Assembly (NCBI GenBank): GCA_016183425.1
Contig: JACPEP010000041.1
Span: 3,704-67,703 of the forward strand
From: Chloroflexota bacterium
Lineage (GTDB): Bacteria; Chloroflexota; Dehalococcoidia; JACPEP01
Direction: 5' to 3'
DNA: 64,000 nt
In this document: positions 483-15,821 of the stretch, piece by piece
How positions within the stretch are numbered: the stretch's first letter is position 1
How the letters are laid out: every line of letters begins with the position of its first letter
Notes under the pieces: model-generated
What the model was told of the DNA's origin: nothing
Seen by the model: the letters and a program-made list of their open reading frames with translations, nothing else
The model's database searches: none
Translations under genes and position numbers: made by a program

Positions 483-2128
483 TTTGTTTCTTCCTCCACT
501 ACCTTTTCATCCAGTTTAAGGAAGAGGGGAGCCGGTGGGGGCAGCTTCTGACCGGAGGGCACCGGGGAGAAGTGCCACCCCTCCGCCTCCAGGGATGTTT
601 GGTAACCTAGCATCTGGTGGAGCTGGATCGAGCTGAAGGGAAGGAAAGGGTAGAGAACCTGCTTTAGGCACTGGATGGCCGTCAGGGCCCCATAGAGGGC
701 GGCCCCCGCGGCCTCCCTATCCCGAGAAACGGTCTTCCAGGGGGATTTCTCGTCCAGGTAGCGGTTGGTTTCCTGGGCCAGGGCCATGGCACTGCGAAGC
801 GCCTCACGGAAGCGGCACCGGGAGAGGGAGGCATCCATGGCCTCCAAGGTGTTCTGGCAGCGGGCGACCAGGGTCTGGCTAGAGTCATCCTCCTTGTCTC
901 CGGCCGGGACGGCGCCGCCGAAGTGGCGCTGAAGGAAGGTCAGCACCCGGTGCACCAGGTTGCCGTAGGTGGCCACCAACTCGTCGTTGTTGCGTCGCAC
1001 AAACTCTCGCCACGAGAAATCGGTGTCTCCCGTCTCGGGCATGTTTATGGAGAGAAGATAGCGGAGGGGATCGGGGTGGTAGCGGGCCAGGTAGTCGGGC
1101 AGCCATACCGCCCAGTTGCGGCTGGTGGAAAGCTGTCTCCCCTCCAGGGTTAGGAACTCGTTGGCGGGAACGTCGTAAGGGAGAAGGAGACCATCGTAGC
1201 CTATGAGCATGGCCGGCCAGATGATGGTATGAAAGGGGATATTGTCCTTGCCGATGAAGTAGTAGGCCCGGGTGGGCTCTCGCCAGAACTCCCGCCATTT
1301 ATCCTCGTCCCCCTGAAGACGGGCCCACTCTTTGCTGGCGGAGAGATAACCGATGACCGCCTCAAACCAGACGTATATCCGCTTGTCCGGATAGTCAGGA
1401 AGGGGAAGGGGCACCCCCCAGGTGATGTCCCGGGTAATGGCCCGATCCTTTAGTCCCTCCTCCAGCAAGCCAAGGGTAAAGTGGCGTACGTTCTCCCGCC
1501 AGTGGCCTTGTTCCCTCACCCATGGGCTGAGAGAATCGGCTAAGGCGGTGAGGCGCAAAAAAAAATGCTCTGAGTCCCTGAAAGTGGGCGTGGCGCCACA
1601 TATGCCACATCTCAGGTCAATTAGCTCCCATGGATTGAGGGTGCGGCCACACTCGTCGCACTGATCCCCCCGAGCATTCAGGTAATGACAGTGGGGGCAG
1701 GTTCCCTCCACGTAGCGATCAGGGAGGAAGCGCTGGCACTGGGGGCAGAAGGGGAGAGACATCTTATCCTTGTAGATGTACCCCTTGTCCAGGAGCTTTA
1801 GAAAGATGTGGTGGGTTGTCTCCTTATGATTGACTGTCTCCGTGGAGGTAAACAAGTCCCAGGAGATGCCCAAGCTTTGCCAGCAATCCAGGAACTGCTG
1901 GTGGTAGCGATGCACTACCTCCTCGGGCGATACCCCTTCCCGTTGTGCCCGAAGGGTGATGGGGGTGCCGTGGGCGTCGCTTCCGGAGACCATAAGCACC
2001 TGATCGCCTTTGAGGCGGTGGTAGCGGGCGAAGATGTCCGCTGGAAGATAGGCGCCGGCGATATGTCCCAGGTGAAGGGGGCCGTTGGCGTAGGGCCAGG
2101 CGACGCCGATGAAGATGCGTTCCGTCAC
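458..2128 (-). CDS. metG: methionyl-tRNA synthetase
   Basis: 556-aa ORF with the class I aaRS HLGH motif (PLHLGHIAGAYLPADIFARY), zinc-knuckle CPxC/CPHC pairs and a KMSKS-like region. Confidence 0.9.
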   Translation of the reverse strand: MTERIFIGVAWPYANGPLHLGHIAGAYLPADIFARYHRLKGDQVLMVSGSDAHGTPITLRAQREGVSPEEVVHRYHQQFLDCWQSLGISWDLFTSTETVNHKETTHHIFLKLLDKGYIYKDKMSLPFCPQCQRFLPDRYVEGTCPHCHYLNARGDQCDECGRTLNPWELIDLRCGICGATPTFRDSEHFFLRLTALADSLSPWVREQGHWRENVRHFTLGLLEEGLKDRAITRDITWGVPLPLPDYPDKRIYVWFEAVIGYLSASKEWARLQGDEDKWREFWREPTRAYYFIGKDNIPFHTIIWPAMLIGYDGLLLPYDVPANEFLTLEGRQLSTSRNWAVWLPDYLARYHPDPLRYLLSINMPETGDTDFSWREFVRRNNDELVATYGNLVHRVLTFLQRHFGGAVPAGDKEDDSSQTLVARCQNTLEAMDASLSRCRFREALRSAMALAQETNRYLDEKSPWKTVSRDREAAGAALYGALTAIQCLKQVLYPFLPFSSIQLHQMLGYQTSLEAEGWHFSPVPSGQKLPPPAPLFLKLDEKVVEEETKRLAQISG

Positions 2129-2282
2129 GGGACTATTCTACCATAAGGAAATCCAGGATAGCAAAAGCCATGAGGAGACCATTTAACCCGCCAGAGACGG
2201 AGGGTTTTCGGGAGGGCCGTTGGCGACAGAAAAGGAACTATGCCGATGGATAGGTAGTTTGGTGAGAAAAAGCGGCGACATC

Positions 2283-2313
2283 GATGCCAAGTGTACATGA
2301 CTTGTGGTATAAT
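2283..2313 (+). promoter_or_regulatory. putative sigma70-type promoter with an extended -10 (TGgTATAAT) upstream of the sensor kinase gene
   Basis: tgtggtataat lies at about 2303-2313, roughly 45 nt upstream of the ATG at 2358. The -35 element is weak. Confidence 0.3.
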
Positions 2314-2357
2314 TATTGTGATTGGCGTAACTTGCTTTCATTTATGGCCGTAAAGAG

Positions 2358-3668
2358 ATGAGCCTCAGACAACTTAAGTGGCTGACCTTCATCTTGCCAC
2401 CCTTTGCTATTGCCCTCGTTGAATATATCCGCCATGTTCGCCTTCAGATGCACGGGTGGGAGGGCGATCTGGTGCCCGTGGTTGTGGTGGGATTAGGAAC
2501 TCTTTTACTAACCCATTTTGTTTTCCAGCGGATCTATAAGCTGGAGGCGGCCATATTACTTCGCAACGAAGCCCTGGCCGGCGTCAATGCCATCGCCGAC
2601 GCCGTGGGGCGCTCTCTGGATACAGAGACAGAGGTTAAAGTGGCCCTGGAGAAGACAGTGGCCACCACTCAGGCGGCTATGGGCGCCCTGTACCTGGTGG
2701 GCGAAGACGGGAACCTGACCCTCAAGAGCCACCACAACCTGGGCGAGGTTTTTGTGCGGGACAAGATTAACGGCCTATTTGAAGAATGCCTGCCTGGTGC
2801 TCCCGCCTTCAACTGTCGCCAGGTGATGGAGAGGATGGCGCCTCTAATAGCGACGGAAAGGGACCGGGTGGTGTCGAGCCTTCCCATCGTTTTCGAGGGC
2901 GACGTCCGGGGGACCATCTGTCTGGCCGGAGACCGTCGCCTCACCGCCTACGACCGGGAGATGCTTCTTGCCATCGGGCACCATATCGGCTCGGCCCTTG
3001 AAAATGCTCGCCTCCACGAGCAGGTGGAGAACATGGCCGTCCTGGAGGAGAGGGACCGCATCGCCAGAGAGGTTCACGACGGCCTGGCCCAGGTGCTGGG
3101 CTACCTGGCAATGAAGAGCCGCGTAGTACAGCAACTCTTGCCCGCCAACCTACCGGCGGCGACGGAGGAGCTCAGGGAAATGGAACGCTTGGCCGACGAG
3201 GCCTTCGCCGATTCCCGGGAGGTCATTTTAGGTCTCAGAACCTCCCTATCCATCCTGGACCGGGGGCTGGTACGAACCCTCACCGAGTACATCAACAAGT
3301 TCAACCATCGCAGCCCCGTCAAGGCGGAGCTCATCATCAGCGATTCCGATAAGTTTCGCTTTTCTCCCGACACCGAGATTCAGTTGATACGCATCGTCCA
3401 GGAGGCCTTAACCAATGTTCGTAAGCACGCCCGGGCCTCCCAGGCATGGGTGCGTTTGGAGGGAAAGAATGGGCTGGCCTCCGTCTCGGTAGCAGACAAT
3501 GGCCGGGGCTTCGACTTGCCTCAGGGGGCCCAAAAGGGCTTTGGTCTCCAGACCATGAAGGAGCGCGCTGAGAGCGTGGGGGGCAGCTTGGAGGTGGACA
3601 CCGTGCCCGGGCAAGGTACTACGGTTACGGTGCTCCTTCCCACCATAGTGAAAGAGAAGACATATTGA
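2358..3668 (+). CDS. sensor histidine kinase (N-terminal membrane segment, GAF domain, HisKA_3 dimerisation domain, HATPase_c); NarL-partner type
   Basis: HisKA_3 signature EERDRIAREVHDGLAQVLGYL and ATPase G-boxes (DNGRGFD, GFGLQTMKERAESVGG). Its stop overlaps the start of the downstream response regulator. Confidence 0.85.
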   Translation: MSLRQLKWLTFILPPFAIALVEYIRHVRLQMHGWEGDLVPVVVVGLGTLLLTHFVFQRIYKLEAAILLRNEALAGVNAIADAVGRSLDTETEVKVALEKTVATTQAAMGALYLVGEDGNLTLKSHHNLGEVFVRDKINGLFEECLPGAPAFNCRQVMERMAPLIATERDRVVSSLPIVFEGDVRGTICLAGDRRLTAYDREMLLAIGHHIGSALENARLHEQVENMAVLEERDRIAREVHDGLAQVLGYLAMKSRVVQQLLPANLPAATEELREMERLADEAFADSREVILGLRTSLSILDRGLVRTLTEYINKFNHRSPVKAELIISDSDKFRFSPDTEIQLIRIVQEALTNVRKHARASQAWVRLEGKNGLASVSVADNGRGFDLPQGAQKGFGLQTMKERAESVGGSLEVDTVPGQGTTVTVLLPTIVKEKTY

Positions 3669-4342
3669 AAACAGCGCGGCTCCTTTTGGTGGACGACCAG
3701 GTTCTCTTCCGGAAGGCCATCGCCAGCCTCCTCAACGCCAACCCAAACGTGGAGGTGGTGGGAGAGGCGGAGAATGGCCGAGAGGCGGTGGAGAAAGCCC
3801 GAGAGTTGAAACCCGACCTGGTGCTCATGGACATTCGGATGCCCGAAATGGATGGCATCCAGGCCACTCGCCTGATCAAGGCCAAAATGCCGGAGGTTCG
3901 CATCGTCATCCTCACCGTGTCCGACGAAGAGGAGGACCTTTTTGAGGCCATCAAAAGCGGCGCCCAGGGCTACCTCCTCAAAAACCTGCGTCCCGAGGTT
4001 CTCTTCGAGTTTCTGGAGGGCGTATTGAGGGGGGAGGCGGCCATATCCCCCGTCCTGGCTTCCAAGATACTGGATGAATTCGTAAAGCAATTCAAGAAGC
4101 CCCGCCAGGTTTTTCAGCCCGATGTAGAGCTTACCGAGCGAGAGAAAGAGGTGCTGCGATTGGTGGTTAGGGGAGCCAGCAACAAGGACATCGCCAACGC
4201 CCTCTATATCTCCGAGGGGACGGTGAAGAACCATCTTCACAATACCCTTAAGAAGCTCCACATCCGAAACCGCGCCCAGGCCACCGCTTATGCCCTGCGG
4301 GAGGGCATTGTGAAGGATACGCCCGAGGGGTATATACCCTAA
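3665..4342 (+). CDS. two-component response regulator, NarL/FixJ family (REC + LuxR-type HTH)
   Basis: Receiver motifs LLVDDQ...DLVLMDIRMPEMDG. C-terminal LuxR HTH: EREKEVLRLVVRGASNKDIANALYISEGTVKNHLHNTLKKL. Confidence 0.9.
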   Translation: MKTARLLLVDDQVLFRKAIASLLNANPNVEVVGEAENGREAVEKARELKPDLVLMDIRMPEMDGIQATRLIKAKMPEVRIVILTVSDEEEDLFEAIKSGAQGYLLKNLRPEVLFEFLEGVLRGEAAISPVLASKILDEFVKQFKKPRQVFQPDVELTEREKEVLRLVVRGASNKDIANALYISEGTVKNHLHNTLKKLHIRNRAQATAYALREGIVKDTPEGYIP

Positions 4343-4655
4343 GACCCGTATCTTTCGCTCCATATCCTTCCTCATCCCATCTGCTACTAGTCCCTTCTGC
4401 TTTGCCCAAGGGGATAGTTAAACCCGCCACTACGCCTGTCTTTAAGCTCTAGCACCCTCCAGGTACAACCTAAAATAGACCTCCTTTTTGTGAAAAATAT
4501 ATCAACTAGTGGATAGACAGGTACTAGTACTTACCCTAGCATGGAATTAGGTGATTAAACATGGAAAACAGGATGGCGAGGCAGCGGTTAATTAAGAAAG
4601 AATCATTCCTTCTGTCTCGCATCTTCGGGCCGCTAGTGGAAAAGGAGGTTCGGTC
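4343..4655 (+). promoter_or_regulatory. AT-richer intergenic region with repeated ACTAGT-centred palindromes (candidate operator sites)
   Basis: Motifs ctactagtccc, caactagtggat, ggtactagtactta, ccgctagtgg and ttgctagtgctgg occur within 330 bp. GC content is clearly below that of flanking genes. Confidence 0.25.
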
Positions 4656-4760
4656 ATGCCAGGCGTGGCGATATTGTTGCTAGTGCTGGTGGCTTTGGCG
4701 GGGGGGATTATGTATGGTATCCGGCTCCTCCTTAGGAGGCTCTACAAAGGTGCCCTTTAG
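4656..4760 (+). CDS. small hydrophobic peptide (34 aa, single predicted TM helix), hypothetical
   Basis: ATG at 4656 is preceded by a strong Shine-Dalgarno (aaaaggaggtt) 7 nt upstream. It encodes MPGVAILLLVLVALAGGIMYGIRLLLRRLYKGAL and is not in the ORF track because it is under 60 aa. Confidence 0.3.
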   Translation: MPGVAILLLVLVALAGGIMYGIRLLLRRLYKGAL

Positions 4761-4809
4761 TCAGGGAGGGCACTTAGACGGGGAACTCAAAAGGGGCCAA
4801 AGAGCAGGA

Positions 4810-5214
4810 ATGAAGGCGGCCAAGAACGTGGAAACGAAGGAAGAGCGCCAGGTGTTTATCCTTTTCAGCCACTCCTTAATGGCGGAAGGCCTGAACATTC
4901 TCCTTCGGGCCCACGATTTAAAGGTGGTGGGCGTGGACGCCCGCCAGGCCGACGCCGTGGAGCACGCCCAGCATCTCATGCGACCCCAAGACGTGATCAT
5001 CGTGGACGAAGGAGATATTGCTGTTCATCCCTCTATGAGCATCTTCCAGTTGTTCATGAAGCACCCTGACGTGACCGTGGTGGGCCTGAACGTTAAAAAC
5101 AACTCCATGGAGATATACCAAAGGGAGGTGAAAACCATGGAGCGTCTGGAGGATCTGCTGGGGATCCTCCAGTGTCCCAGCCGAAGCGGGGCCCAGATGC
5201 TTGCCGGGGAATGA
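4810..5214 (+). CDS. hypothetical protein with a degenerate receiver-like (pseudo-REC) fold
   Basis: Internal ATG at 4810 (MKAAKNVETKEERQVFILFSHSLMAEGLNILL...DVIIVDEGD...PDVTVVGLNVKNN). REC-like spacing is present, but the conserved acidic pocket is replaced by SH. The listed ORF start at 4714 overlaps the small peptide ORF. Confidence 0.4.
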   Translation: MKAAKNVETKEERQVFILFSHSLMAEGLNILLRAHDLKVVGVDARQADAVEHAQHLMRPQDVIIVDEGDIAVHPSMSIFQLFMKHPDVTVVGLNVKNNSMEIYQREVKTMERLEDLLGILQCPSRSGAQMLAGE

Positions 5215-5261
5215 AGATGACTAAGTCGAGGGAAGTCTGAAGCCTAGAGGGGAGTCGATCT

Positions 5262-5588
5262 ATGAAACGATACCTTTTCCTGGTGGTAGCCCTGGTTCTG
5301 GCAGCGGTCTTCGTCGTATTCAGCTACCGCCAAACCAGAGGCATGCCTGACTACGCCGCCCGCACCGGCGAGCCTTGTGCCACCTGCCATGTCAACCCCT
5401 CTGGAGGCGGGCCGAATACCGATCGCGGGCGGGCCTGGGTAGCGGCGGGCAAGCCGGACAAGGTGCCTGTTTTAGCGGCAACGCCTACTCCCACCTCAGC
5501 CCCTTCTCCGGCACCGGGAGAACCAAAGCCAACAACGCCACCGCCACCCCCGGAAACTGAGTACGGCGGGTGTGGCTACGACAAGTAG
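5262..5588 (+). CDS. membrane-anchored monoheme c-type cytochrome with a Pro/Thr-rich linker
   Basis: N-terminal TM helix and a single CxxCH motif (CATCH). The C-terminal tail PTPTSAPSPAPGEPKPTTPPPPPE is low complexity. Confidence 0.6.
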   Translation: MKRYLFLVVALVLAAVFVVFSYRQTRGMPDYAARTGEPCATCHVNPSGGGPNTDRGRAWVAAGKPDKVPVLAATPTPTSAPSPAPGEPKPTTPPPPPETEYGGCGYDK

Positions 5589-5639
5589 CCGGGAGGTAAA
5601 GGCGGCAGTGACAAACTTGAGAGCAAAACCAGTGAGGAT

Positions 5640-8024
5640 ATGTCTATGAACAGGCGGACATTCTTAAAGGCCTTGGGAGCCACGGGGGTCACGGCCACGG
5701 TGGCGGGCCAGTTCGTTATCAACCGCTCCACCGGCGAGGCGGGAGCGCCCCACGCTGCGGGCGTGGTTCGCAAGGGGGAGACTTGGGTTCCCACCGTTTG
5801 CTACCAATGCCCGGGGGGCTGCGGCATCCTGGCCCGGGTGGTAGAAGGCAAGGCAGTGAAGCTGGAGGGCAACCCCCAGCACCCCATCAATGAAAGGAGG
5901 CTATGCCCCAAGGGGCAATCTGCCCTCCAGATTCTCTACAACCCCGACCGCTTGCAGCACCCCCTACGCCGGGCGGGCGCCCGGGGGGAAGGACGCTGGC
6001 AGGAGATAACCTGGGAGGAGGCCATGGCCGAGGTAATCTCCCGTCTTAAGACCATCAGAGACCAGGGAGAGCCCCACACCGTGGCCATCATGCACGGGCG
6101 ATTGCGGGGTGAGATGGAAGGACTTATTCACCGCTTCCTGGAGGCCTATGGCAGCCCCAACGATATATCCTCCGCCAGCCTGGGTCGCCAGACGGCCAAG
6201 GTAGCTCACCTTCTTACCCAGGGTATCGAGGACCTCATGGCCTATGACCTGGAGAACGCCAACTACCTGCTGTCTTTCGGGGGCAGTCTTCTGGAGGCGG
6301 GGGGTCCCCCCATGCGGGTGGTGGGGGCCTATGGCCAGATTCGCCGCGGGCGGCCCAACCGGGCCAAGATTGTGACCGTCGATCCCCGCTTCTCCATAAC
6401 TGCCGCCAAGTCCGACGAGTGGGTTCCTATCGTGCCGGGCACCGATGCCGCTCTGGCCCTGGGCTTGGCCAACGCCATTATTCAGATGGGGGCCTACGAC
6501 AAGGACTTCGTGGCCAATTACACCTTCGGCTTTGAGGACTGGACTGACGAAGGGGGGCAGAAGCACAAGGGATTCAAGACCCTGGTCCTGGAGGAGTACC
6601 CGGCCAAGAAGGTATCCGAGATAACGGGAGTGCCGGTGGCCAACATCTCCCGCCTGGCCGCCGAGTTTGCCACCAACAAGCCCGCCCTGGCTATTAATCC
6701 AGACCGAGGCGCTCTTCACGCCAGCCTCGGCGGCTCCTATACCGGAGCCGCCATACACAGCCTCAACGCCCTGGTAGGCAACCTCGACCGGCCCGGAGGG
6801 GTGATGGTGCAGCGCTATCCACTCTGCGTTCCATGGCCAGACACCCAGATGGATGAAACAGCCCGGAAGGGCCTAAGGCAGCCGCGCATCGACGGAGCGG
6901 GGAGCAAGCGCTTTCCCCTGGCCAACTCCATTTACCAAACCGTGGCCCGAAACTCCTGGGAAGGCAACCCCTACCCCCTACGGGCACTCCTTCTTTACTA
7001 TACCAACCCGGTGTTCTCCAGCCCCCAGGGACAGGAGTTCGTCGCCGCCTTCCAAAAGATGGATTTCATCGTGGATTTTAGCCCCTTCTTCAGCGATTCT
7101 AACCAGTATGCCGATCTCATCCTGCCCGACCATACCTTCTTTGAGAGGTATGAGAACGACCTGCCTCCCGCGGGCACCGGCTATCCGGTGGTAGGGCTGC
7201 GCCAGCCGGTGGTGGAGCCTCTGTACAATACCCGCCATACGGGAGACGTGCTTCTCCAGGTGGCCCAGGGATTGGGAGGTGGCGTGGCCGGCTCCTTCCC
7301 CTGGAAAAACTTTGTGGAGATCCTCCAGTTCCGGCTGAGCAAGCTGGGGGTCTCCTGGGAGGAGCTGAGGAAGACGGGCGTGTGGGCCAAGCCTCTCTAC
7401 CCCTTCACCTCCCCCACGGACAGCCGATGGCACTCCGTGGTGGGCACGGACCGCCGCTATGCCCCCAAAGATGGCCGGTTTGATTTCTACATGAGGGAGC
7501 TAAAGGGCCTCTTTGAGAAAAAGGGCATCACCGAGGCCGATTTGGCGGGGATGAACATCTCGGCGCGCGGCGACCTGGTGTACCTGCCCCACTACGAGGC
7601 ACCCCACCGCACGGGAGATGCCACGGAATATCCTCTTCTCCTCAACACCTACAAGCTCATGACCCACGCCGAGGGCAAGGGAGGCAACGTGCCCGGGCTT
7701 CAGGAGATGTTGGGATTGCATGTGGGGGTCAAGTGGCAAACCTGGGCGGAGATCAACCCGCAAACGGCTCACAAGCTGGGCATTAAGGAAGGGGACATGG
7801 TTTGGGTGGAATCGCCCCAGGGACGGATCAAGGTACGGGCTAAGCTCTACGCTGGCGCTCGTCCGGACATGGTAAACATACCCTTCGAACAGGGACATGC
7901 TGCCGGGGGTCGGTGGGCACAGAGCCGGGGGGCTAATCCCAACACCATCATACCCTCGGTTACCGAGGCCTTGGCGGGAAGTGCAGCCTTTACCTCCTTT
8001 GGGGTGAAGGTATACAGAGCATAG
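5640..8024 (+). CDS. molybdopterin (Mo-bisPGD) oxidoreductase catalytic subunit, Psr/Phs/Ttr/DMSO-reductase family, TAT-exported
   Basis: Twin-arginine signal MSMNRRTFLKALGATGVTATVAG. N-terminal FeS0 cysteine motif CYQCPGGCG...C. Length 794 aa, typical of a CISM A subunit. Confidence 0.85.
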   Translation: MSMNRRTFLKALGATGVTATVAGQFVINRSTGEAGAPHAAGVVRKGETWVPTVCYQCPGGCGILARVVEGKAVKLEGNPQHPINERRLCPKGQSALQILYNPDRLQHPLRRAGARGEGRWQEITWEEAMAEVISRLKTIRDQGEPHTVAIMHGRLRGEMEGLIHRFLEAYGSPNDISSASLGRQTAKVAHLLTQGIEDLMAYDLENANYLLSFGGSLLEAGGPPMRVVGAYGQIRRGRPNRAKIVTVDPRFSITAAKSDEWVPIVPGTDAALALGLANAIIQMGAYDKDFVANYTFGFEDWTDEGGQKHKGFKTLVLEEYPAKKVSEITGVPVANISRLAAEFATNKPALAINPDRGALHASLGGSYTGAAIHSLNALVGNLDRPGGVMVQRYPLCVPWPDTQMDETARKGLRQPRIDGAGSKRFPLANSIYQTVARNSWEGNPYPLRALLLYYTNPVFSSPQGQEFVAAFQKMDFIVDFSPFFSDSNQYADLILPDHTFFERYENDLPPAGTGYPVVGLRQPVVEPLYNTRHTGDVLLQVAQGLGGGVAGSFPWKNFVEILQFRLSKLGVSWEELRKTGVWAKPLYPFTSPTDSRWHSVVGTDRRYAPKDGRFDFYMRELKGLFEKKGITEADLAGMNISARGDLVYLPHYEAPHRTGDATEYPLLLNTYKLMTHAEGKGGNVPGLQEMLGLHVGVKWQTWAEINPQTAHKLGIKEGDMVWVESPQGRIKVRAKLYAGARPDMVNIPFEQGHAAGGRWAQSRGANPNTIIPSVTEALAGSAAFTSFGVKVYRA

Positions 8025-8039
8025 GAGGAGGCAATAACG

Positions 8040-8726
8040 GTGACCAGATGGGGAATGGTTATCGACCTGGATAAGTGTGTCGCCTGCCAGGGGTGCACCG
8101 CCGCCTGCCGGGCGGAGAACAACGTCCCCTTCCAGGGGCCCGAAGGCACCGCCCAGGGGCGAGCCATGTTCTGGAACGAGGTCATTCCGGTGGTGGAGGG
8201 GGAATATCCCGATGTGAAGGCCCGCTTTTTCCCCCGCCCCTGTATGCATTGCGAGCGTCCGCCCTGCGTTTTCGTCTGTCCCGTAGGGGCCACCTACCAG
8301 GATGAGGATGGGGTGGTGCGCCAGAACTACTCTCGCTGCATCGGCTGCCGTTTCTGCACCGTGGCTTGCCCCTATGGAGTACGCTACTTCAACTGGTTCA
8401 AACCCAACTTTCCCGAGCCTATGGTGGCCTATACTAACCCCGACCCGGAGGTGCCCGTGCGCCCCAAGGGCATCGTGGAAAAGTGCGTTTTCTGCATTCA
8501 ACGGATCAATAAGGCCAAAGAAAAGGCGGCGGCGGAGGGACGGGAGCTGAAGGATGGGGACATCGCCCCCGCCTGCGTTCAAACATGCACCGGCCGGGCC
8601 CGGTACTTTGGCGACCTGGACAACCCCGACAGTACTGTCTCCCGGCTGGTCAAAAGCACCCGGGCCTTTCGCCTGTTGGAGGAGTTGGGCACCCATCCCA
8701 AGGTCTACTATCTGATGGAGGGCTAG
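8040..8726 (+). CDS. 4Fe-4S ferredoxin-type electron-transfer subunit of the molybdoenzyme (PsrB/NrfC-like)
   Basis: Multiple CxxCxxCxxxCP motifs (CVACQGCTAAC, CMHCERPPCVFVCP, CIGCRFCTVACP, CVFC...CTGRARYFGD). Confidence 0.85.
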   Translation: MTRWGMVIDLDKCVACQGCTAACRAENNVPFQGPEGTAQGRAMFWNEVIPVVEGEYPDVKARFFPRPCMHCERPPCVFVCPVGATYQDEDGVVRQNYSRCIGCRFCTVACPYGVRYFNWFKPNFPEPMVAYTNPDPEVPVRPKGIVEKCVFCIQRINKAKEKAAAEGRELKDGDIAPACVQTCTGRARYFGDLDNPDSTVSRLVKSTRAFRLLEELGTHPKVYYLMEG

Positions 8727-8730
8727 CGGC

Positions 8731-10095
8731 ATGGAACAACTCACTGGCATCGACGAAGAGCGTTATCTGGAACCCGTTAAGAAGGTGGGGAGGGGGTTCT
8801 ATATCACGGTGGCTTTCCTTCTCTCCATCATCGCCTGGGGAGCCTTCGCCTGGTACACCCAGTTCCAGACTGGGCTAGGGATCACCGGCTTGAATCGGCC
8901 GGTGTTCTGGGGGTTCTACATCACCAACTTTGTTTTCTTCATCGGCATCAGCCACGCCGGGACCCTGGTGTCCGCCATTTTGCGCCTCACTCAAGCCGGA
9001 TGGCGGCGCCCCATCACCCGCGTCGCCGAGGCCATCACCGTCTTCACCCTCCCCGTGGGTGCCATGAACGTCCTCTTCGACGTGGGGCGGCCCGATCGGA
9101 TACTGAACATCATCCTCCACCCCCAGGGCCGCTCTCCCTTAATATGGGACATCGGCAGCATCAGCATGTACCTGACGGCCAGCGTCATCTACCTCTACCT
9201 GCCCCTCATTCCCGACATCGCCTTGTGCCGCGACCGCATTGGAGGGTGGCGGCAGGAGCTTTACCGTATTCTGGCCCTGGGCTGGAGGGGCACGGAGGCC
9301 CAGAAAAAGCGCCTCAAGATGGGCATCGGCATTATGGCCGTAGTGGTCATCCCTATCGCCGTCTCGGTGCACACGGTGGTCTCCTGGATATTTGGCATGA
9401 CAACGCGGGCCGGGTGGCACAGCACCATCTTCGGCCCTTATTTCGTAGTGGGGGCCATCTTCTCCGGCATCGCGGCGGCCATCCTGGCCATGGCCGTGGT
9501 GCGGAAGGTCTTCCATATGGAGCACACCTTGAAGCCCCGCCACTTCGACTATATGGGTCTTCTTCTTCTGGTACTCACTGCCGCCTATATCTACTTCACC
9601 TTTGCCGAGTATCTTACCGTCTACTACGGCTACGGCGGCTCCGCCACCGAGGGATCCCTCCTCACCGCCCTGTTCACGGGCGAGTTCGCTCTAACCTTCT
9701 GGGTCATGGTGGTCTTCGGTTTCTTTGTGCCGGGCATCATCCTGGCCTTCCCCCAGGGGCGGAGCATCCGGGGGACGGTAATCGCCTCGGTGCTCATCGT
9801 GTTCTTCATGTGGGTCAAGAGGTTTATCATCGTCGTCCCCTCTCTTTCCCGACAGTTTCTTCCCTATCCCACCGGCTTCTACCAGGCGACCTGGGTAGAG
9901 TGGTCACTGACGGCGGCCAGCTTCGCCGTCTTTGTCCTCCTCTACGTCGTCTTCTCCCGGATGTTCCCCATCGTTTCGGTATGGGAGCTAAAGGAGGGGG
10001 AGGAGGAAGCCAGGGAGAAGGCAGAGGAAGCGGCGAAAATGCTGGCCCCCGCAGGGGCTCCGAGACAGTCTCGGGCCAGCGAGGTTTTGGGGTAA
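8731..10095 (+). CDS. NrfD/PsrC-type polytopic membrane anchor subunit (quinone-interacting)
   Basis: 454-aa highly hydrophobic ORF with 8-10 predicted TM helices, immediately downstream of the A and B subunits. C-terminal acidic tail. Confidence 0.8.
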   Translation: MEQLTGIDEERYLEPVKKVGRGFYITVAFLLSIIAWGAFAWYTQFQTGLGITGLNRPVFWGFYITNFVFFIGISHAGTLVSAILRLTQAGWRRPITRVAEAITVFTLPVGAMNVLFDVGRPDRILNIILHPQGRSPLIWDIGSISMYLTASVIYLYLPLIPDIALCRDRIGGWRQELYRILALGWRGTEAQKKRLKMGIGIMAVVVIPIAVSVHTVVSWIFGMTTRAGWHSTIFGPYFVVGAIFSGIAAAILAMAVVRKVFHMEHTLKPRHFDYMGLLLLVLTAAYIYFTFAEYLTVYYGYGGSATEGSLLTALFTGEFALTFWVMVVFGFFVPGIILAFPQGRSIRGTVIASVLIVFFMWVKRFIIVVPSLSRQFLPYPTGFYQATWVEWSLTAASFAVFVLLYVVFSRMFPIVSVWELKEGEEEAREKAEEAAKMLAPAGAPRQSRASEVLG

Positions 10096-10098
10096 GCA

Positions 10099-11769
10099 AT
10101 GATAGGCAACCAGCGGCGGGGTGGGGTTGTCCTCTGCCGTTGCCACGGCCAGAATTCAGGTAGCATAGACCTGGAGACGGTAGGTCGCTTCCTGAGGGAG
10201 GCCTTTCCCGGTACTCCGGTGGAGGTAGCCGACGATCTGTGCCGCGACACAGCGCCCGTGGCCCATCTCATCAAGAATGTCGGGCCCACCTGCCTGGTGG
10301 TGGGGGCCTGCGGGGAAGGTGGGGTGGCGGCCCGGGTGAGGCGTCGCGCCTCGCAAAACGGGCTGGACCCCTATTCCGTTTCCCTGGTAGCCCTGCGGGA
10401 GCGCAGCGCCCTGGTTCACCCCTATGACCAGAGCACCGAAAAGGCAAAGCTCCTCATGGCGTCGGGCCTCCGGCGTAGCCTGGCTTTTTCGGGCACCCAT
10501 CCCTGCAATCTTCGGCCCCGGCTGGGGGGAAATGGTGGCATGAGCCGGCGCAGCCTCCTCAGCCTGGCCTTCATTCAGCAACAGGTCATTCCCCATGTGG
10601 AAACTAGATCCTGTCTCGCCTGGCGAGGCTGTCGTAACTGTCTAGCCTCCTGCCCGGCGAAAGCCCTCTTCGTGTCTGAGGAGCGACTGGTAATCGATTC
10701 TGAGCGCTGCCGGGGCTGTGGCCTGTGCACCATCGCCTGCCCCGTAAACGCCCTTCGTCTCCCCACCGCCACGGTGGAGGAGATGGATGAGGCGATGGGG
10801 GGCCTTCTGGCTCAGAGAGGGGTAAGTCTGGAGCCGCGGCTCCTCCTTCTCACTTGCAGCGGCACGTCCCGGGTATTGGATGGCGGGGCAGGTACGGAGT
10901 ATCCCGCCGCCGTGCTGCCCCTGGAGCTGCCCTGTTTGGGCATGGCCTCCAGCTTCCTGCTTCTACGAGCACTGGAACGGGGCGCCTGGGGAGTGGGCCT
11001 CCTCTCCTGCAACGGGAAGTGTGACTACGGTTTCTTGTGCCATCTGGAGAGGCGAGTAGAACAGGCCAACGCAGTGGCTCAGGGCCTGGGGCTGGGGGAA
11101 CGTAGGATATCCCTCCTGGCCCCTGGGGAGAGGGAGGCTGTGGTACAGGGACTAAAAGAGCTAGTCTCCTACTTTAAGGGAGCCGGTCCCCACCGGCTGA
11201 CGGGCATAGAGGCCACCCCTTTGGGGGATGAGGGGTCATCCCTGGGCCTCCTGCTTTACCGTATGAGCCAGGGGGCGTCGGACGGCGCGGTTTCCCTTCC
11301 CCATGCCGAGGATTTCCCCTTGGGCCAGGTGGCCGTAGACCCCTCTCAGTGCATCGCCTGCGGCGTATGTGCCGCCAACTGCCCCACGGGGGCGTTGCGG
11401 GCCAAAGAGGAGGCGGGGGTTTTCCGCCTCACCTTCAGCCACGTCTCCTGCGTCGCCTGCCAGCTGTGTTTCAAGGTATGCCCCCAGCGACCCCGGGCCC
11501 TGACCGTGGCGGCAGGGTTGGATTGGGGGCGGATTAGCCAGCCGCCGGAGGTGCTTTACGAGGAGATGATGACCCGTTGCCAGTCCTGTGGTGAGCCCTT
11601 CACCAGCCCAGGGGTGGCGCGGCGGGTACAAGAGGCTCTGGCCCGCCGGGGCGGCCTATTCAACTCAGCCTATGTGGCCAGCCTTTGTCCTCGTTGCCGC
11701 CTGAGCGGGGGTATCTTGGCCCAATCTTTAAAGAAGAACCTGGTCGCGGCGGCCCCTAAGAACTTCTAA
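10099..11769 (+). CDS. cytoplasmic iron-sulfur protein with two MvhD/FlpD-like (hydrogenase iron-sulfur subunit) domains, each followed by a 4Fe-4S ferredoxin domain
   Basis: The first MvhD-like segment is VVLCRCHGQ...PVEVADDLCRD...GPTCLVVGACGEG. A second, stronger one is LLLLTCSGTS...LPLELPCLGMASSFLLLRALERGAWGVGLLSCNGKCDYGFLCH. Ferredoxin motifs are CRGCGLCTIACP, CIACGVCAANCP and CVACQLCFKVCP. It starts 4 nt after the NrfD-like gene. Confidence 0.7.
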   Translation: MIGNQRRGGVVLCRCHGQNSGSIDLETVGRFLREAFPGTPVEVADDLCRDTAPVAHLIKNVGPTCLVVGACGEGGVAARVRRRASQNGLDPYSVSLVALRERSALVHPYDQSTEKAKLLMASGLRRSLAFSGTHPCNLRPRLGGNGGMSRRSLLSLAFIQQQVIPHVETRSCLAWRGCRNCLASCPAKALFVSEERLVIDSERCRGCGLCTIACPVNALRLPTATVEEMDEAMGGLLAQRGVSLEPRLLLLTCSGTSRVLDGGAGTEYPAAVLPLELPCLGMASSFLLLRALERGAWGVGLLSCNGKCDYGFLCHLERRVEQANAVAQGLGLGERRISLLAPGEREAVVQGLKELVSYFKGAGPHRLTGIEATPLGDEGSSLGLLLYRMSQGASDGAVSLPHAEDFPLGQVAVDPSQCIACGVCAANCPTGALRAKEEAGVFRLTFSHVSCVACQLCFKVCPQRPRALTVAAGLDWGRISQPPEVLYEEMMTRCQSCGEPFTSPGVARRVQEALARRGGLFNSAYVASLCPRCRLSGGILAQSLKKNLVAAAPKNF

Positions 11770-11776
11770 AAAAGGC

Positions 11777-12199
11777 TTATTCCCCCATTATCTGCAAAAC
11801 CACCTCCCGAGAGCGGGACCGGTTATCGAAGTCTACCACCACTATCTGCTGCCAGGTGCCCAGGGTGAGGCCGCCATGGGTCACGGGCACCACCAGGGAC
11901 GCACCCAGGAGGGCGGCCCGAACATGGGAGTAGCCGTTCCCGTCGCCCCAGGCCCGGTCGTGCTGATAGTCCACATCCGTGGGGACAAGGCGCTGCCAGG
12001 CAGTTTTGAAGTCCTCCAGAAGGCCCTTCTCGAACTCTATAGTGGTCACCGCCGCCGTGGAGCCGGTGATGAAGATGGTAACGATTCCCTCTTTGATTCC
12101 TGAACGAGCCACCTCTTGGGCCACCGGGCCGATAATGTCGATAATGTCGCCGTGTCCTCTGGTTTGTAAGCCGATGCGCTGCGTCACTACCATAGTCAC
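11777..12199 (-). CDS. YjbQ/UPF0047 family protein (secondary thiamine-phosphate synthase-like)
   Basis: The 140-aa sequence has the typical YjbQ pattern (IIDIIGPV..., GIVTIFITGSTAAVTTIEFE, ...GLTLGTWQQIVVVDFD). Confidence 0.8.
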   Translation of the reverse strand: MTMVVTQRIGLQTRGHGDIIDIIGPVAQEVARSGIKEGIVTIFITGSTAAVTTIEFEKGLLEDFKTAWQRLVPTDVDYQHDRAWGDGNGYSHVRAALLGASLVVPVTHGGLTLGTWQQIVVVDFDNRSRSREVVLQIMGE

Positions 12200-12498
12200 C
12201 TCTTTCTGAGCAGGCTATCTTGAGACTAACAACCCCGGGCAAGGGTGTCAACAGCGTCCTCGGTTCGGAATGACAGGATACTTTCCCCTGGCCGGGCACA
12301 ATTTATTAGGGTCAGATGGGGAGTGTCTTCCTCACCCTGCCCTGAACGCTACACGTCCTCTCTTAGGTCCGCCCATTAAAAGGGCGACACGGATGAGCAC
12401 CCTTTCGAGGACAGGCTTGCCCCTCTCCCCTCCTTTTGCTATCATGGGTTAAATAGACCTTGAATTGTCTACTGAAGTTACTTTAAAAGGAGGGCCTC

Positions 12499-13026
12499 AT
12501 GCGCATACTAGATGAACTGCCCAAGTTCCCTACCCGGGGCGCGCCTGCCTTCAACCCCACCCAGTGGCGGCTGGTGGTGGACGGGCTGGTGGCCACACCT
12601 GTTCAAATGACCTATGATGAAGTGCTTCGCCTCCCTTACACTGCCATGAAGAGCGATTTCGAGTGCGTGGACGGCTGGCGCGTCCCTGGCCTGGGCTGGG
12701 AGGGGTTCTCTCTCCGCGCCATAGTGGACATGGCACAGCCCCTACCTCAGGCCACCTTTGTTGCCTTCCACTCCGGTACTTACCGCATCAGCCTCCCCCT
12801 GGAGGAAGCCTTAGCGCCGGGGGTGATGCTGGCTCACCACCTCCATGGCTCACCGCTGCCCTATGAGTACGGAGCGCCCCTGCGTCTGGTGACTGACGGC
12901 AAGGAATGCTTCTATGGTGTGAAGTGGGTGCAGCGCCTGGAGTTCAGCGACAGCGACGCCGGGGATACCGCCAAAGACATCGCCCTGGGCCGCATCCAGG
13001 CCCGGCTCGCCCGCCAGGGAAGCTAG
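12499..13026 (+). CDS. sulfite-oxidase-family molybdopterin-binding domain protein (Oxidored_molyb only, 175 aa)
   Basis: The sequence W..VVDGLVATPVQMTYDEVLRLPYTAMKSDFECVDGWRVPGLGWEGFSLRAI...GAPLRLV...YGVKWVQRLEF is typical of the YedY/sulfite-oxidase Moco domain. Confidence 0.75.
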   Translation: MRILDELPKFPTRGAPAFNPTQWRLVVDGLVATPVQMTYDEVLRLPYTAMKSDFECVDGWRVPGLGWEGFSLRAIVDMAQPLPQATFVAFHSGTYRISLPLEEALAPGVMLAHHLHGSPLPYEYGAPLRLVTDGKECFYGVKWVQRLEFSDSDAGDTAKDIALGRIQARLARQGS

Positions 13027-13515
13027 GTGAAATTCTGCCCTCAATGCGCCACCCCCCTGGCGGACAAAATGGCCTTCGGCCGATTGAGGCCCCACTGTCC
13101 CGCCTGCGGCTTTACCTACTTTCACGACCCCAAGGTGGCGGTGGCGGTCATCTTGGCCAAAGATAGTCAGGTACTGTTGAGCCGCCGCAACCACGACCCC
13201 CAAAAAGGGGCGTGGAGCTTTCCCGCTGGCTACGTAGATGCTGGTGAGCGGGTGGAGGAGGCCGGCCGGCGGGAGGTGAGGGAGGAAACCAACCTGGAGA
13301 TTGCCATCGACCGCCTCTTGGGGGTCTACTCCGAGGCAGGAAACCCCGTCATTCTCATCGTCTACACCGGACGCATCCTGTCGGGCGTCCCCCACCCTGG
13401 CCCGGAGGCCGCGGAGGTCCGCTTCTTCCCGCCGGATGAGGTGCCCCCATTGGCCTTCCCCCACGACCGGCAGGTGCTGGAAGACTGGCTGCGGTCGGGC
13501 GGCAAGAAGACATAG
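13027..13515 (+). CDS. NUDIX hydrolase with an N-terminal zinc ribbon
   Basis: CPQC...CPACG zinc ribbon. NUDIX box GYVDAGERVEEAGRREVREETNLEI. GTG start abuts the upstream stop codon. Confidence 0.8.
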   Translation: MKFCPQCATPLADKMAFGRLRPHCPACGFTYFHDPKVAVAVILAKDSQVLLSRRNHDPQKGAWSFPAGYVDAGERVEEAGRREVREETNLEIAIDRLLGVYSEAGNPVILIVYTGRILSGVPHPGPEAAEVRFFPPDEVPPLAFPHDRQVLEDWLRSGGKKT

Positions 13516-13521
13516 ACCCCC

Positions 13522-14628
13522 ATGTCCCTGGCGGCCGAGGTAAAGGAGAGAGCCCTAGAGATGGGCTTCCATGCCGCGGGCATTGCCACGGTAGAGCCTT
13601 TTCCTGAGGTTGAAAAGGCCTTCCTGGAGCGACAAGGAGCCTTCTCTGGCCTGAGGTGGTTCACTCCCCAGCGGGCCTATATCGCCAGCCACCCCCAGGC
13701 CATCCTCCCCCCAGCGCGCTCCATCATATCCGTTGCCCTGAGCTACGGGAAGGAATTGCCAGAGTCAGGGGGCGAGGGTCCCCGGGGGCGGCTATCCCGA
13801 TATACCCAGGGGCAGGACTACCACCGAAGGTTGTCTGCCAAACTCAGGGAGCTGGTAAGCTTCATGGAGAAGGGGTCCTGCCAAAAGCGGGGCGGAGAGA
13901 CCAGGATAGTGGTGGATTCATTTCCGTTGGCAGAGCGAGCAGTGGCCCACCGGGCGGGGGTGGGATGGTTCGGCAAGAACAGCAATATCTTCGTTCCTCA
14001 AAAAGGCTCCTGGGTCTTCCTGGGCGAGATCATCTCCAACGTGGAGATGGCCCCGGACCAGCCCCTGGCCAAGAGCTGTGGCAACTGTCGCGCTTGCATC
14101 CAGGCCTGCCCCACCGGTGCCATCACCGCCCCCTACGCAGTGGAGAACGACCGCTGCATCTCTTTCCTCACCATCGAGCTGAAAGGCAGTCTGCCCCGCC
14201 CCCTGCGGCCCCTCATGGGAGACTGGATTTTCGGCTGCGATGTATGCCAGGAGGTCTGCCCCGTGAACCGACGACTGGCAGGAGAGTCAGTGGTTCCCAC
14301 GTTGCCCTTGATTCCTTTGTTGCGGATGGGGGAGGCTGAGTTCAACCTGAAGTTCGCCGGAAGGCCGATGCAACGGGCCCAGAGGTCCGGCCTGCGGCGC
14401 AACGCCGCGGTGGCCCTGGGCAACCTGGGACACCCCCAGGGGCTGCCGGCCCTAATAGAGGCTCTCGAGGATAGCGACCCCGTGCTACGGGAGCATATTG
14501 CCTGGGCCCTGGAGCAGTTGGGTGGAAAGAGGGCGCAGGCCGCCCTGGAAAAGGCGTGGAGACATGAGACCCACGCCCCGGCCCGAGAGGAGATGGCTCT
14601 GGCCTTGGGGAGTCTGACGGCTGCCTAA
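13522..14628 (+). CDS. queG: epoxyqueuosine reductase (tRNA queuosine biosynthesis)
   Basis: QueG-like N-terminus with two 4Fe-4S motifs (CGNCRACIQACPTGAI, CDVCQEVCPVN). C-terminal HEAT-like repeats. Confidence 0.8.
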   Translation: MSLAAEVKERALEMGFHAAGIATVEPFPEVEKAFLERQGAFSGLRWFTPQRAYIASHPQAILPPARSIISVALSYGKELPESGGEGPRGRLSRYTQGQDYHRRLSAKLRELVSFMEKGSCQKRGGETRIVVDSFPLAERAVAHRAGVGWFGKNSNIFVPQKGSWVFLGEIISNVEMAPDQPLAKSCGNCRACIQACPTGAITAPYAVENDRCISFLTIELKGSLPRPLRPLMGDWIFGCDVCQEVCPVNRRLAGESVVPTLPLIPLLRMGEAEFNLKFAGRPMQRAQRSGLRRNAAVALGNLGHPQGLPALIEALEDSDPVLREHIAWALEQLGGKRAQAALEKAWRHETHAPAREEMALALGSLTAA

Positions 14629-14664
14629 AAGGCCGATTTAGATAATGCAGTATACTTGATACCT

Positions 14665-14678
14665 CACACTTAAGTGTG
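14665..14678. promoter_or_regulatory. perfect 14-bp palindrome CACACTTAAGTGTG in the queG/NmrA-like intergenic region (candidate operator or short hairpin)
   Basis: Exact inverted repeat 44 nt upstream of the ATG at 14722. Confidence 0.25.
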
Positions 14679-14721
14679 GGGCATCAACCAACCCTGAAGC
14701 ATAGGAATTGGGGATGTCACC

Positions 14722-15666
14722 ATGGACAACGGCGAACTGAACGTAGTGACCGGAGCCTTCAGCTACACCGGCAAGTACATCGCGCGGCGCCTCCTGGCCC
14801 TGGGAAAGCGCGTGCGCACCCTCACCGGGCGTCCTCAAAGTGAAAGCCCCTTCGGAGATCAGGTGATGGCTTACCCCTTCAACTTTCGTCGTCCCGAGGC
14901 TCTGCGGGAGAGCCTGCGGGGGGTAACCACCCTCTACAATACCTACTGGATTCGCTTCCCCTGGCGAGACGTTACCTTCGATAAAGCGGTGGCAAACACC
15001 CGGGTGCTCATCAAGGCGGCGGAAGAGGCGGGGGTGCGTCGGCTGGTGCATATCAGCATCACCAACGCTACCGAGGACTCGCCTCTGCCTTACTTCAGGG
15101 GCAAGGCCCTGGTGGAGAAAGCTATCCGGGCGTCATCCCTGTCTTATGCTATTGTTCGGCCTACGGTGGTATTCGGGACGGAGGACATCCTCATCAACAA
15201 CATCGCCTGGTTTCTCAGAAAGTTTCCTGCCTTCTCCATCCCCGGCTCTGGGGAGTACCGCCTCCAACCCATCTTCGTTGACGACGTAGCGAAGATAGCC
15301 GTGGACGCCGGCCAACAGGAAGGCAGGTTGGAGGGGGATGCCGCCGGCCCGGACACCTATACCTTTGACGAGTTGGTGCGCCTCATCGCCGAGAAGATAC
15401 ATAGCCGGGCCAGGATCGTCCACCTGCCGCCGGGGCTGGCCCTTTTCCTGTCCCAACAGTTGGGCCACTTCCTGGGCGACGTGGTGCTCACCAAAGAGGA
15501 GGTGGCGGGGCTGATGTCCGGCCTCTTGGTATCCGGGGGCCCTCCCACCGCAAAAACGCGCCTCCCAGACTGGCTGGAGCAGAACGCCGGAACCGTGGGA
15601 ACCCAGTATATCTCAGAGCTGAGGCGTCACTATCGACGACCACGCCCTTCGTCTTCTTATAAATAA
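14722..15666 (+). CDS. NAD(P)H-binding NmrA-like/atypical SDR family oxidoreductase
   Basis: Rossmann glycine motif VVTGAFSYTGKYIARRLL and overall NmrA/epimerase-like organisation. Confidence 0.7.
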   Translation: MDNGELNVVTGAFSYTGKYIARRLLALGKRVRTLTGRPQSESPFGDQVMAYPFNFRRPEALRESLRGVTTLYNTYWIRFPWRDVTFDKAVANTRVLIKAAEEAGVRRLVHISITNATEDSPLPYFRGKALVEKAIRASSLSYAIVRPTVVFGTEDILINNIAWFLRKFPAFSIPGSGEYRLQPIFVDDVAKIAVDAGQQEGRLEGDAAGPDTYTFDELVRLIAEKIHSRARIVHLPPGLALFLSQQLGHFLGDVVLTKEEVAGLMSGLLVSGGPPTAKTRLPDWLEQNAGTVGTQYISELRRHYRRPRPSSSYK

Positions 15667-15821
15667 AGTGGCGAAGTTGTGGACAGGGTAGTCGGCGTCG
15701 TCCCTGATCCGTCAGAGGCGGAGGGTCGGGACGACCCCGACTACATATGGGGCCATATGGGGCGAAGCTGTGAATTAATATTGCTGAGGGGGCGAAGTCC
15801 CTCTAGAAAAGGAGTCTCGCC

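Follow-up and report, generated by a model that had tools for sequence, protein, structure and literature searches.

Gene D, the last gene of a five-gene operon in a 64-kb stretch of DNA from a Chloroflexota metagenome-assembled genome (MAG; the whole stretch is called the window here, and the locus corresponds to NCBI proteins MBI2305106-MBI2305114), may encode a NapF-like cytoplasmic iron-sulfur (Fe-S) accessory factor that is built from Hdr and Mvh parts and serves the biogenesis of an exported redox enzyme. We give this reading, which draws on sequence comparison and on an analysis of gene neighbourhoods, a probability of roughly 0.45. The operon consists of five tightly packed open reading frames (ORFs), all on the + strand, encoding a monohaem cytochrome, a molybdoenzyme-type subunit with a twin-arginine translocation (Tat) signal (A), a four-cluster ferredoxin (B), an NrfD-family membrane protein (C) and D, and its intergenic gaps are 51, 15, 4 and 3 nt. 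The protein encoded by D (MBI2305110.1) is annotated at NCBI just as a '4Fe-4S binding protein'.

How is D built? A profile made from 43 family members was compared with solved structures domain by domain, and the domain order is an HdrA N-terminal domain, a linker with an RRxLL/LF peptide, an HdrA C-terminal ferredoxin, an MvhD domain and a NapF/HycF-like dicluster followed by a Cys4 site (Table 1). The AlphaFold model (predicted local distance difference test score, pLDDT, 91.4; predicted template modelling score, pTM, 0.90) has HdrA, HycF and MvhD as its top fold matches. First, profile positions 6-139 match the HdrA N-terminal domain; with the single sequence, residues 5-130 match 9sfi_A (E 4e-6), and C13, C15, C48 and C71 align with HdrA cysteines. 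Second, residues 165-242 match HdrA residues 581-656 and, in NCBIfam, HdrA2 residues 569-773, and their eight cysteines (C172, C178, C181, C185, C204, C207, C210 and C214) are invariant in the D family. Third, PF02662 (FlpD) matches residues 261-356 (E 3e-10; 40.5 bits against a gathering cut-off of 22.3), and the domain also matches 7bkb_F (E 2e-6, single sequence) and 5odc_D (template modelling (TM) score 0.78, root-mean-square deviation 2.2); C253, C279, C304 and C308 align with MvhD cysteines, and only C253 and C308 are near-invariant across the family. Fourth, the cysteines of residues 409-548 are invariant, profile positions 415-541 match HycF, and this C-terminal module resembles HycF 7z0s_F (TM 0.69-0.75) and HyfH (E 1e-14). 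What the family conserves is four ferredoxin CxxCxxCxxxCP-type motifs, a C-terminal CxxC...CxxC, three N-terminal cysteines and the arginines 150-151. The original prediction had given D two MvhD/FlpD-like domains and three ferredoxin-type clusters. One MvhD domain stands and the N-terminal one proves to be of the HdrA type, and the clusters were undercounted, given four motifs and the invariant C-terminal cysteine pairs. The FAD-binding thioredoxin-reductase-like core of HdrA is absent from D, with no Pyr_redox or FAD match in Pfam, and flavin-based bifurcation is therefore impossible. As had been stated, no HdrA-type flavoprotein is encoded nearby: a comparison of the other ORFs with seven HdrA queries found no flavin-bearing HdrA in the window.

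The linker between the first two domains bears a twin-arginine-like motif. In at least 90% of the aligned family R150 and R151 are retained, and the pattern [STA]RRx[LFIMV][LFIMVT] matches 119 of 155 family members, most of the others having xRRxLL or xRRxLF. The linker has a pLDDT of 72-74. No hydrophobic h-region or membrane helix comes after the motif, and we therefore rejected the idea that this internal motif drives Tat export of the C-terminal part of D. A motif of this kind is also found at the N-terminus of E. coli NapF (SRRGIL). NapF is a cytoplasmic four-cluster protein that binds NapA, is needed for Fe-S assembly of NapA in R. sphaeroides, requires NapH for membrane attachment in Wolinella, and is missing from some nap operons (PMC10609526). 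When E. coli NapF was aligned with D by hhalign, residues 416-534 of D, including the terminal cysteine pairs, were matched over 109 columns (Prob 96.8, E 2.8e-10). Moreover, 22 of 149 members of the D family are shorter than 470 aa; in most of these the N-terminus falls shortly ahead of the RR motif, and two start at the motif itself, like NapF.

The same motif allows another explanation, in which D would be a redox-sensing checkpoint or decoy in Tat proofreading. The RRxLL/LF peptide would mimic a Tat signal and bind a TorD-type chaperone or TatBC, and the clusters of D would report Fe-S or redox status and gate the export of the A/B precursor. The near-universal occurrence of the motif in a linker of lower model confidence, the starts of the short members, and the fact that D mostly adjoins, and is translationally coupled to, genes for signal-peptide-binding chaperones of the TorD family (see below) would all be expected of such a checkpoint. 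However, the RR motif is equally conserved in the window and in the group of operons called type II below, which have no TorD nearby. Nilavongse et al. reportedly found in 2006 that mutation of the RR motif of NapF did not abolish its function, which is a further point against a decoy. We regard this explanation as very unlikely.

An exhaustive search at E<1e-30 yielded 200 cluster representatives of the D family (50% identity), nearly all of 410-580 aa and of common architecture, from Chloroflexota, at least one archaeon and metagenome contigs. The family is widespread and unnamed, and no description of it was found in the literature searched; a published survey mentions just 'hypothetical ferredoxins' in TorD-fdh operons (PMC4464133). 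A profile search of the protein database was dominated by HdrA and gave no further members, and a scan of genome contigs with D as a single protein returned generic ferredoxin matches only. Some loci (designated by L numbers), among them L001, L002, L003, L004, L006, L007, L017 and L018, came from exact look-ups; for a wider sample we used a degenerate DNA pattern for the C-terminal module of D, consisting of CPTGAL, a second dicluster motif and CxxC, which biases the sample to one motif variant and to TGC codons. At least 120 metagenome loci were obtained, at least 60 of them with D, and among the matches listed 37 loci were scorable, having at least 600 nt upstream of D. Neighbouring genes were annotated by phmmer with a small reference set, and the tree is a simple neighbour-joining tree.

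In these 37 loci, the gene directly upstream of D encodes TorD in 25 (26 if L042 is included) and NrfD in nine, and is not recognisable in two. The close linkage to NrfD that had been described for the window, where the gap is 3 nt, is in this sample the less common of two arrangements. The TorD and D genes overlap by 4-11 nt in L001, L006 and L142. Could D be an independent soluble redox protein, such as a polyferredoxin for other cytoplasmic enzymes, that is merely co-located with these genes? In three loci (L019, L049 and L119) D has no recognisable redox-enzyme neighbours, as this explanation would have it. But in about 35 of the 37 loci D follows directly, on the same strand, the TorD or NrfD gene of an A/B-type operon, and the stop codon of that gene often overlaps the start codon of D. 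We consider such an independent role scarcely credible.

The arrangements around D are diverse. L001 and L002 have the order A-B-NrfD-small protein-TorD-D (the contig of L001 begins inside the gene upstream of NrfD), L004 has A-B-NrfD-D, and L006, which contains the nearest relative of the window's D (41% identity), has cytochrome-B (with a Tat signal)-NrfD-cytochrome/Ig protein-TorD-D and lacks A. In at least six loci there is no NrfD gene, only 275-520 nt separating B from TorD; L045, one of these, has, by Pfam, A-B-small cytochrome c-TorD-D. Genes of cofactor metabolism also occur: MobB lies 3' of D in L066 and L120, and in L018 (5316-8685), from the archaeal Candidatus Terraquivivens MAG, D is flanked by MobB on one side and a TorD-like gene on the other; MoeA and a MobA-like gene are no more than 9 kb away, and the stretch contains no A, B or NrfD. 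A distant relative of 676 aa in Thalassobaculum fulvum (L003, 7820-12031) is divergent from an FdnGHI-like cluster of the order DUF3305-DUF3306-TorD-FdnG-like-FeS-cytochrome b, an arrangement that has been noted and left unexplained (PMC4464133). L141, the closest A-B-NrfD operon, in which A is 59% identical and the cytochrome and regulators are the same, has no D, whereas the next closest, L142, has a Cys-bearing A, TorD and a short D. In many operons of the TorD type (L001 1856-2113, L002 9102-9332 and several metagenome loci) we also observed a conserved two-helix membrane protein of 76-85 aa between NrfD and TorD, which may be an extra small subunit.

Nine loci (L007, L017, L038, L050, L051, L063, L081, L101 and L121), of which all but L007 and L017 stem from the pattern search, form a monophyletic clade, which we call type II. 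Their order is A (without the Mo-ligand Cys)-B-NrfD-D-71-aa two-helix protein-686-aa protein, the last of which joins a NarI/DsrM-like membrane domain to Fer4_8 and two CCG domains; L017 shows this order (A-B-NrfD-D-small protein-686-aa protein) and L007 the same from B on. No TorD gene adjoins D in any of them. These operons look like a DsrMKJOP-like complex in which a Mo-like subunit replaces DsrJ. On the neighbour-joining tree, linkage to TorD is spread over the D family, including L006, the sister of the window's D, and the link to a DsrMK-like protein is confined to this one clade, which the window's D adjoins.

These observations bear on an electron-transfer role for D. The original prediction had electrons pass from the periplasmic enzyme by way of NrfD into a relay in the cytoplasm, and this route is not supported: NrfD-like subunits interact with quinones and carry no redox cofactors (PMC8076601, PMC6303296), so that electrons have no path through NrfD, and the frequent linkage to TorD, the operons without NrfD, the lack of D in L141 and the archaeal locus with only MobB, TorD and MoeA nearby all argue against it. 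D might instead be a permanent cytoplasmic electron-transfer subunit that is docked on the cytoplasmic face of the membrane subunits and connects an electron donor or acceptor of the cytoplasm with the quinone pool or, in type II operons, with the haem-b/HdrD-like DsrMK fusion, within a DsrMKJOP/Hmc-like complex. The start of D 3 nt after NrfD in the window and its position directly 3' of NrfD in nine loci are what one would expect of such a subunit, as are its composition of HdrA and MvhD modules of the Hdr complex, with HdrA 128-557 missing, its retention without TorD and with a Cys-less A, and the place of the window's D beside the type II clade. Type II operons, moreover, supply both DsrM/K-like and DsrO/P-like parts, and their DsrMK-like protein, adjoining D, could carry electrons across the membrane. 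The same neighbourhoods that speak against the route through NrfD also weigh against an obligate subunit, however, and a search of the 64 kb of the window gave no ORF for a DsrMK-like protein or any other cytochrome b partner, nor does a gene for a cytoplasmic partner enzyme adjoin D there. Because one clade pairs D with a membrane DsrMK-like protein, we regard an electron-transfer role as possible but rather doubtful. Its boldest form, a two-sided respiratory complex in which a flavin-less, HdrA/MvhD-derived wire of six clusters is docked on an NrfD (or NrfD plus DsrMK) module, is unlikely; if it were true, one membrane unit, coupled to quinone and perhaps translocating ions, would serve both low-potential electrons of the cytoplasm and a periplasmic Qrc/Psr-like module. 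To our knowledge, such a two-sided architecture has not been described for any NrfD-family complex.

The A subunit provides a further clue. By Pfam it has the domains Molybdop_Fe4S4, Molybdopterin and Molydop_binding, and it keeps the Tat signal and the FS0 CxxCxxxC...C motif. Its closest solved structures are ArrA (6cz7, 336 bits) and PsrA (2vpw, 241 bits), yet its NCBIfam equivalog scores are far under the cut-offs (ArrA 386/1600, PhsA 371/694, TtrA 121/1750, QrcB 305/440). At the position of the Mo-ligand Cys of ArrA and PsrA (C173) it has Gly182, whose codon GGT differs by a single substitution from TGT (Cys) or AGT (Ser). In the 120 homologues nearest to A (48-59% identity), all of which retain the FS0 motif, this column contains N in 59, C in 35, S in 23, G in two and L in one. 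In operons with a strong TorD match, the ligand is Cys in every one; it is E, N or D in type II operons and G in the window, neither of which has an adjoining TorD, and a further clade (L039, L111, L115 and L125) has G and only weak TorD-like matches. Judging from these residues, the window's A may not be a standard catalytic Mo subunit.

Why, then, do we favour an accessory factor? This reading fits better than an obligate electron-transfer subunit because D occurs without NrfD and is mostly coupled to a signal-peptide chaperone, and because it is sometimes found among Mo-cofactor genes, is absent in L141 and is present with TorD in L142. D is kept where A lacks the Mo-ligand Cys, and its role therefore cannot be Mo-cofactor insertion as such. 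Because D persists without TorD, without a Cys ligand and, in L006, without A, its target is likelier to be the Fe-S clusters of A and B than the Mo cofactor. We infer that D, translated last and coupled to the preceding gene, would stay in the cytoplasm and there act, with up to six Fe-S clusters and the exposed, conserved RRxLL/LF peptide, on the A/B precursor before its export by Tat, in most relatives as the partner of a TorD-type chaperone. Its task might be to load or repair the five [4Fe-4S] clusters of A and B or to poise their redox state, and for this it may dock on the membrane subunit from the cytoplasmic side, as NapF of Wolinella docks on NapH.

Several observations weigh against an accessory factor. 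All modules of D come from electron-transfer proteins (HdrA, MvhD and HycF/NuoI-like), and a chain of six clusters looks like a wire rather than a chaperone. In the monophyletic type II clade D sits among structural genes without TorD, and no TorD-like gene was found in the 64 kb of the window with a hidden Markov model built from 29 TorD-like neighbours. D is retained in the window and in type II operons although A has lost its Mo-ligand Cys there. The similarity between D and NapF lies largely in Cys motifs, the score with TIGR00402 being 42.8 against a cut-off of 102.2. Finally, the sample of loci, chosen by a DNA pattern, is biased. D fails membership in both the NapF and the HdrA families; on the favoured reading it would count as a cytoplasmic Fe-S accessory protein that serves redox enzymes exported by Tat.

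What kind of module would D serve in the window? The original prediction named a canonical periplasmic molybdoenzyme of the Psr/Phs/Ttr type. The order of the operon was given correctly, all five ORFs being real and A, B, C and D having Pfam matches, but the word canonical is doubtful. In NCBIfam, B comes closest to QrcC (268 bits, cut-off 400) and DsrO (185 bits, cut-off 200), C comes closest to DsrP (113 bits, cut-off 350), and the QrcD score is 51/570; a crude hydropathy scan gave C about ten hydrophobic helices. NrfD proteins of the ten-helix class accompany 'catalytic' subunits of a non-standard kind, among them QrcB and ActB, which carry no cofactor (PMC6303296). Because of the Gly at the ligand position, the best matches of B and C, the roughly ten helices of C and the membrane cytochrome, the module looks, from its sequences, like a quinone-coupled one of the Qrc or alternative complex III (ACIII) kind.

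The cytochrome was described from the outset as a membrane monohaem cytochrome c, and its sequence agrees: a single hydrophobic helix at the N-terminal end is followed by the haem motif CATCH, and the tail is rich in Pro and Thr. It has no match in Pfam or NCBIfam. A homologue of 114 aa is encoded in L141 (5146-5490; 50% identity, E 2e-30), and the protein matches the N-terminus of a 339-aa protein in L006 (4929-5948). The three are members of one family of monohaem proteins anchored in the membrane, which is unannotated and has the motif P-x-Y-x-x-x-T-G-x-x-C-x-T-C-H-[VI]-N-P-x-G-x-G-P; the Pro/Thr-rich tail is present in the window and L141, and the L006 member is fused to Ig-like domains and C-terminal hydrophobic helices. 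Upstream of its monohaem gene, the D-less operon of L141 encodes an extra multihaem cytochrome c of 428 aa (3813-5099). This cytochrome and the absence of D fit a cytochrome c:quinone (Qrc-like) function for this type of operon.

The remaining features of the region are as follows. The GAF-HisKA_3 kinase and the NarL-type regulator that had been proposed as regulators are present by Pfam, and the pair also lies upstream of related operons in L002, L006 and L141. A small receiver-like protein sits between the two-component genes and the cytochrome and A, B and C genes in two operons, those of the window and L141; the window's protein has no Pfam match and only a weak response-regulator match in NCBIfam, and is 27% identical (E 3e-14) to the product of a 113-aa gene at the equivalent position in L141 (3461-3802). 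Between the regulator and the operon there is a non-coding stretch of 370 nt (4343-4713) with a lower GC content (0.53), which contains the only promoter-like site on the + strand upstream of the operon (4514-4542). An Rfam scan of positions 1-16000, including this stretch, gave no match and thus no Moco (molybdenum cofactor) riboswitch or similar element. No separate promoter or terminator divides C from D: at their junction there is neither a promoter-like nor a terminator-like site, and the counts of such sites in the region are at the level of shuffled sequence. With this and the PF02662 match above the gathering cut-off, neither of the two outcomes that had been named beforehand as refuting the original prediction has come about. 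Downstream of D we found a convergent YjbQ-like gene (11777-12199, - strand; its Pfam assignment is taken from the near-identical L005) and a short ORF (12499-13026, + strand, 175 aa) of the sulfite-oxidase family, MsrP-like, which is a second type of Mo enzyme near the operon. Apart from the five genes, the window gave no match to TorD, HdrD, MobB or cytochrome b references in phmmer. Overall, the observation behind the original prediction is partly confirmed, and its interpretation as a whole is partly supported.

Table 1. Features of the operon, its regulators and the domains of D (positions in the window)
Feature	Position	Strand	Basis or remark
Sensor kinase, GAF + HisKA_3 + HATPase_c	2358..3668	+	Pfam
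NarL/LuxR-type response regulator, Response_reg + GerE	3665..4342	+	Pfam; start overlaps the kinase stop
Small receiver-like protein	4810..5214	+	ORF as listed 4714-5214; ATG at 4810 is the likely start
Membrane-anchored monohaem cytochrome c-like protein, 108 aa	5262..5588	+	Sequence, hydropathy
A subunit, 794 aa, Mo-bisPGD family with Tat signal, Arr/Psr/Qrc-related clade	5640..8024	+	Pfam
Gly182 codon GGT, position of the Mo-ligand Cys of PsrA (C173) and ArrA	6183..6185	+	HMMER alignments to 6cz7 and 2vpw; MAFFT
B subunit, 228 aa, four-cluster ferredoxin without a signal peptide of its own	8040..8726	+	Fer4_11
C subunit, 454 aa, NrfD-family membrane protein	8731..10095	+	PF03916, E 6e-32
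Gene D, 556 aa, cytoplasmic poly-Fe-S protein	10099..11769	+	No signal peptide, no membrane helix
D residues 1-140, HdrA N-terminal-type domain	10099..10518	+	Profile and single-sequence matches to 9sfi_A, 7bkb_A, 5odc_A
D residues 149-154, SRRSLL, twin-arginine-like motif in linker	10543..10560	+	Family alignment
D residues 165-242, 2x[4Fe-4S] ferredoxin, HdrA C-terminal type	10591..10824	+	Invariant Cys, HdrA match
D residues 246-376, MvhD/FlpD-like domain	10834..11226	+	PF02662
D residues 409-548, second 2x[4Fe-4S] domain and C-terminal Cys4 (C494, C497, C530, C533)	11323..11742	+	NapF/HycF-like

Much of anaerobic respiration is driven by complex iron-sulfur molybdoenzymes and by the Qrc/ACIII-like proteins related to them. 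Except in the Nap system, little is understood of how the many Fe-S clusters of these enzymes are put in place ahead of Tat export. The D family, tied to TorD and bearing a vestigial Tat motif, is a testable candidate for a general NapF-like maturation step. D also shows a reuse of HdrA in which the flavin core has been cut out. If D should prove to be a structural subunit, NrfD-type modules can carry a cytoplasmic redox arm. In addition, the N/C/S/G variability at the ligand position, among proteins that are at least 48% identical, flags a clade in which catalytic and non-catalytic 'molybdoenzyme' subunits interconvert.

How does this operon compare with known systems? With PsrABC, PhsABC and ArrABC it shares the A-B-C gene order and an A subunit with a Tat signal, FS0 and three Pfam domains, ArrA and PsrA being the nearest solved structures; it differs in having Gly182 in place of the Mo-ligand Cys, equivalog scores far under the cut-offs, about ten rather than eight helices in C, and an extra cytochrome and D. 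With QrcABCD and ACIII it appears to share its kinds of part, namely a cytochrome c anchored in the membrane, a subunit of the Mo-bisPGD type, one with four clusters and an NrfD of roughly ten helices; further, B matches QrcC best and A is without the Cys ligand. In contrast, all of the Qrc scores given above are under their cut-offs, the window's cytochrome is monohaem, A keeps the FS0 Cys motif, and Qrc and ACIII are without a cytoplasmic Fe-S subunit. B and C also resemble DsrO and DsrP of the DsrMKJOP/Hmc complexes, and in the type II relatives there is, in addition, a CCG protein of the DsrK/HdrD kind in fusion with a DsrM-like membrane domain; the window, however, lacks DsrM, DsrK and DsrJ, and D has no counterpart in Dsr or Hmc.

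The closest parallels to D itself are of two kinds. HdrA2-type HdrA-MvhD fusions have N-terminal, C-terminal 2x[4Fe-4S] and MvhD domains that are homologous to those of D and follow one another as they do there; in one such fusion (P0007), residues 4-127 and 558-765 align with residues 9-128 and 152-356 of D. Unlike these fusions, D is without some 430 residues (HdrA 128-557), which make up the FAD core and an inserted ferredoxin domain, and has the extra NapF/HycF-like C-terminal module; there is no HdrBC in the window, and the genomic partners of D are Tat-exported enzymes and TorD. NapF, in turn, is like D a cytoplasmic polyferredoxin encoded in the operon of a Tat-exported Mo/Fe-S enzyme. 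The genes of D's relatives lie beside that of a signal-peptide chaperone, both proteins have a conserved, non-exporting twin-arginine motif before the first Cys cluster (SRRGIL in NapF and SRRSLL in D), and both are patchily present among related operons (for NapF, PMC10609526). D differs from NapF in that its RR motif is internal except in the shorter family members, that it is three to four times larger, with the HdrA N-terminal, HdrA C-terminal and MvhD domains, that its partner chaperone is TorD-type and not NapD, and that its partner enzymes are Psr/Arr/Qrc-like or Fdn-like and not Nap. With only one ferredoxin motif aligned in the sub-threshold TIGR00402 match, D is not a member of the NapF family.

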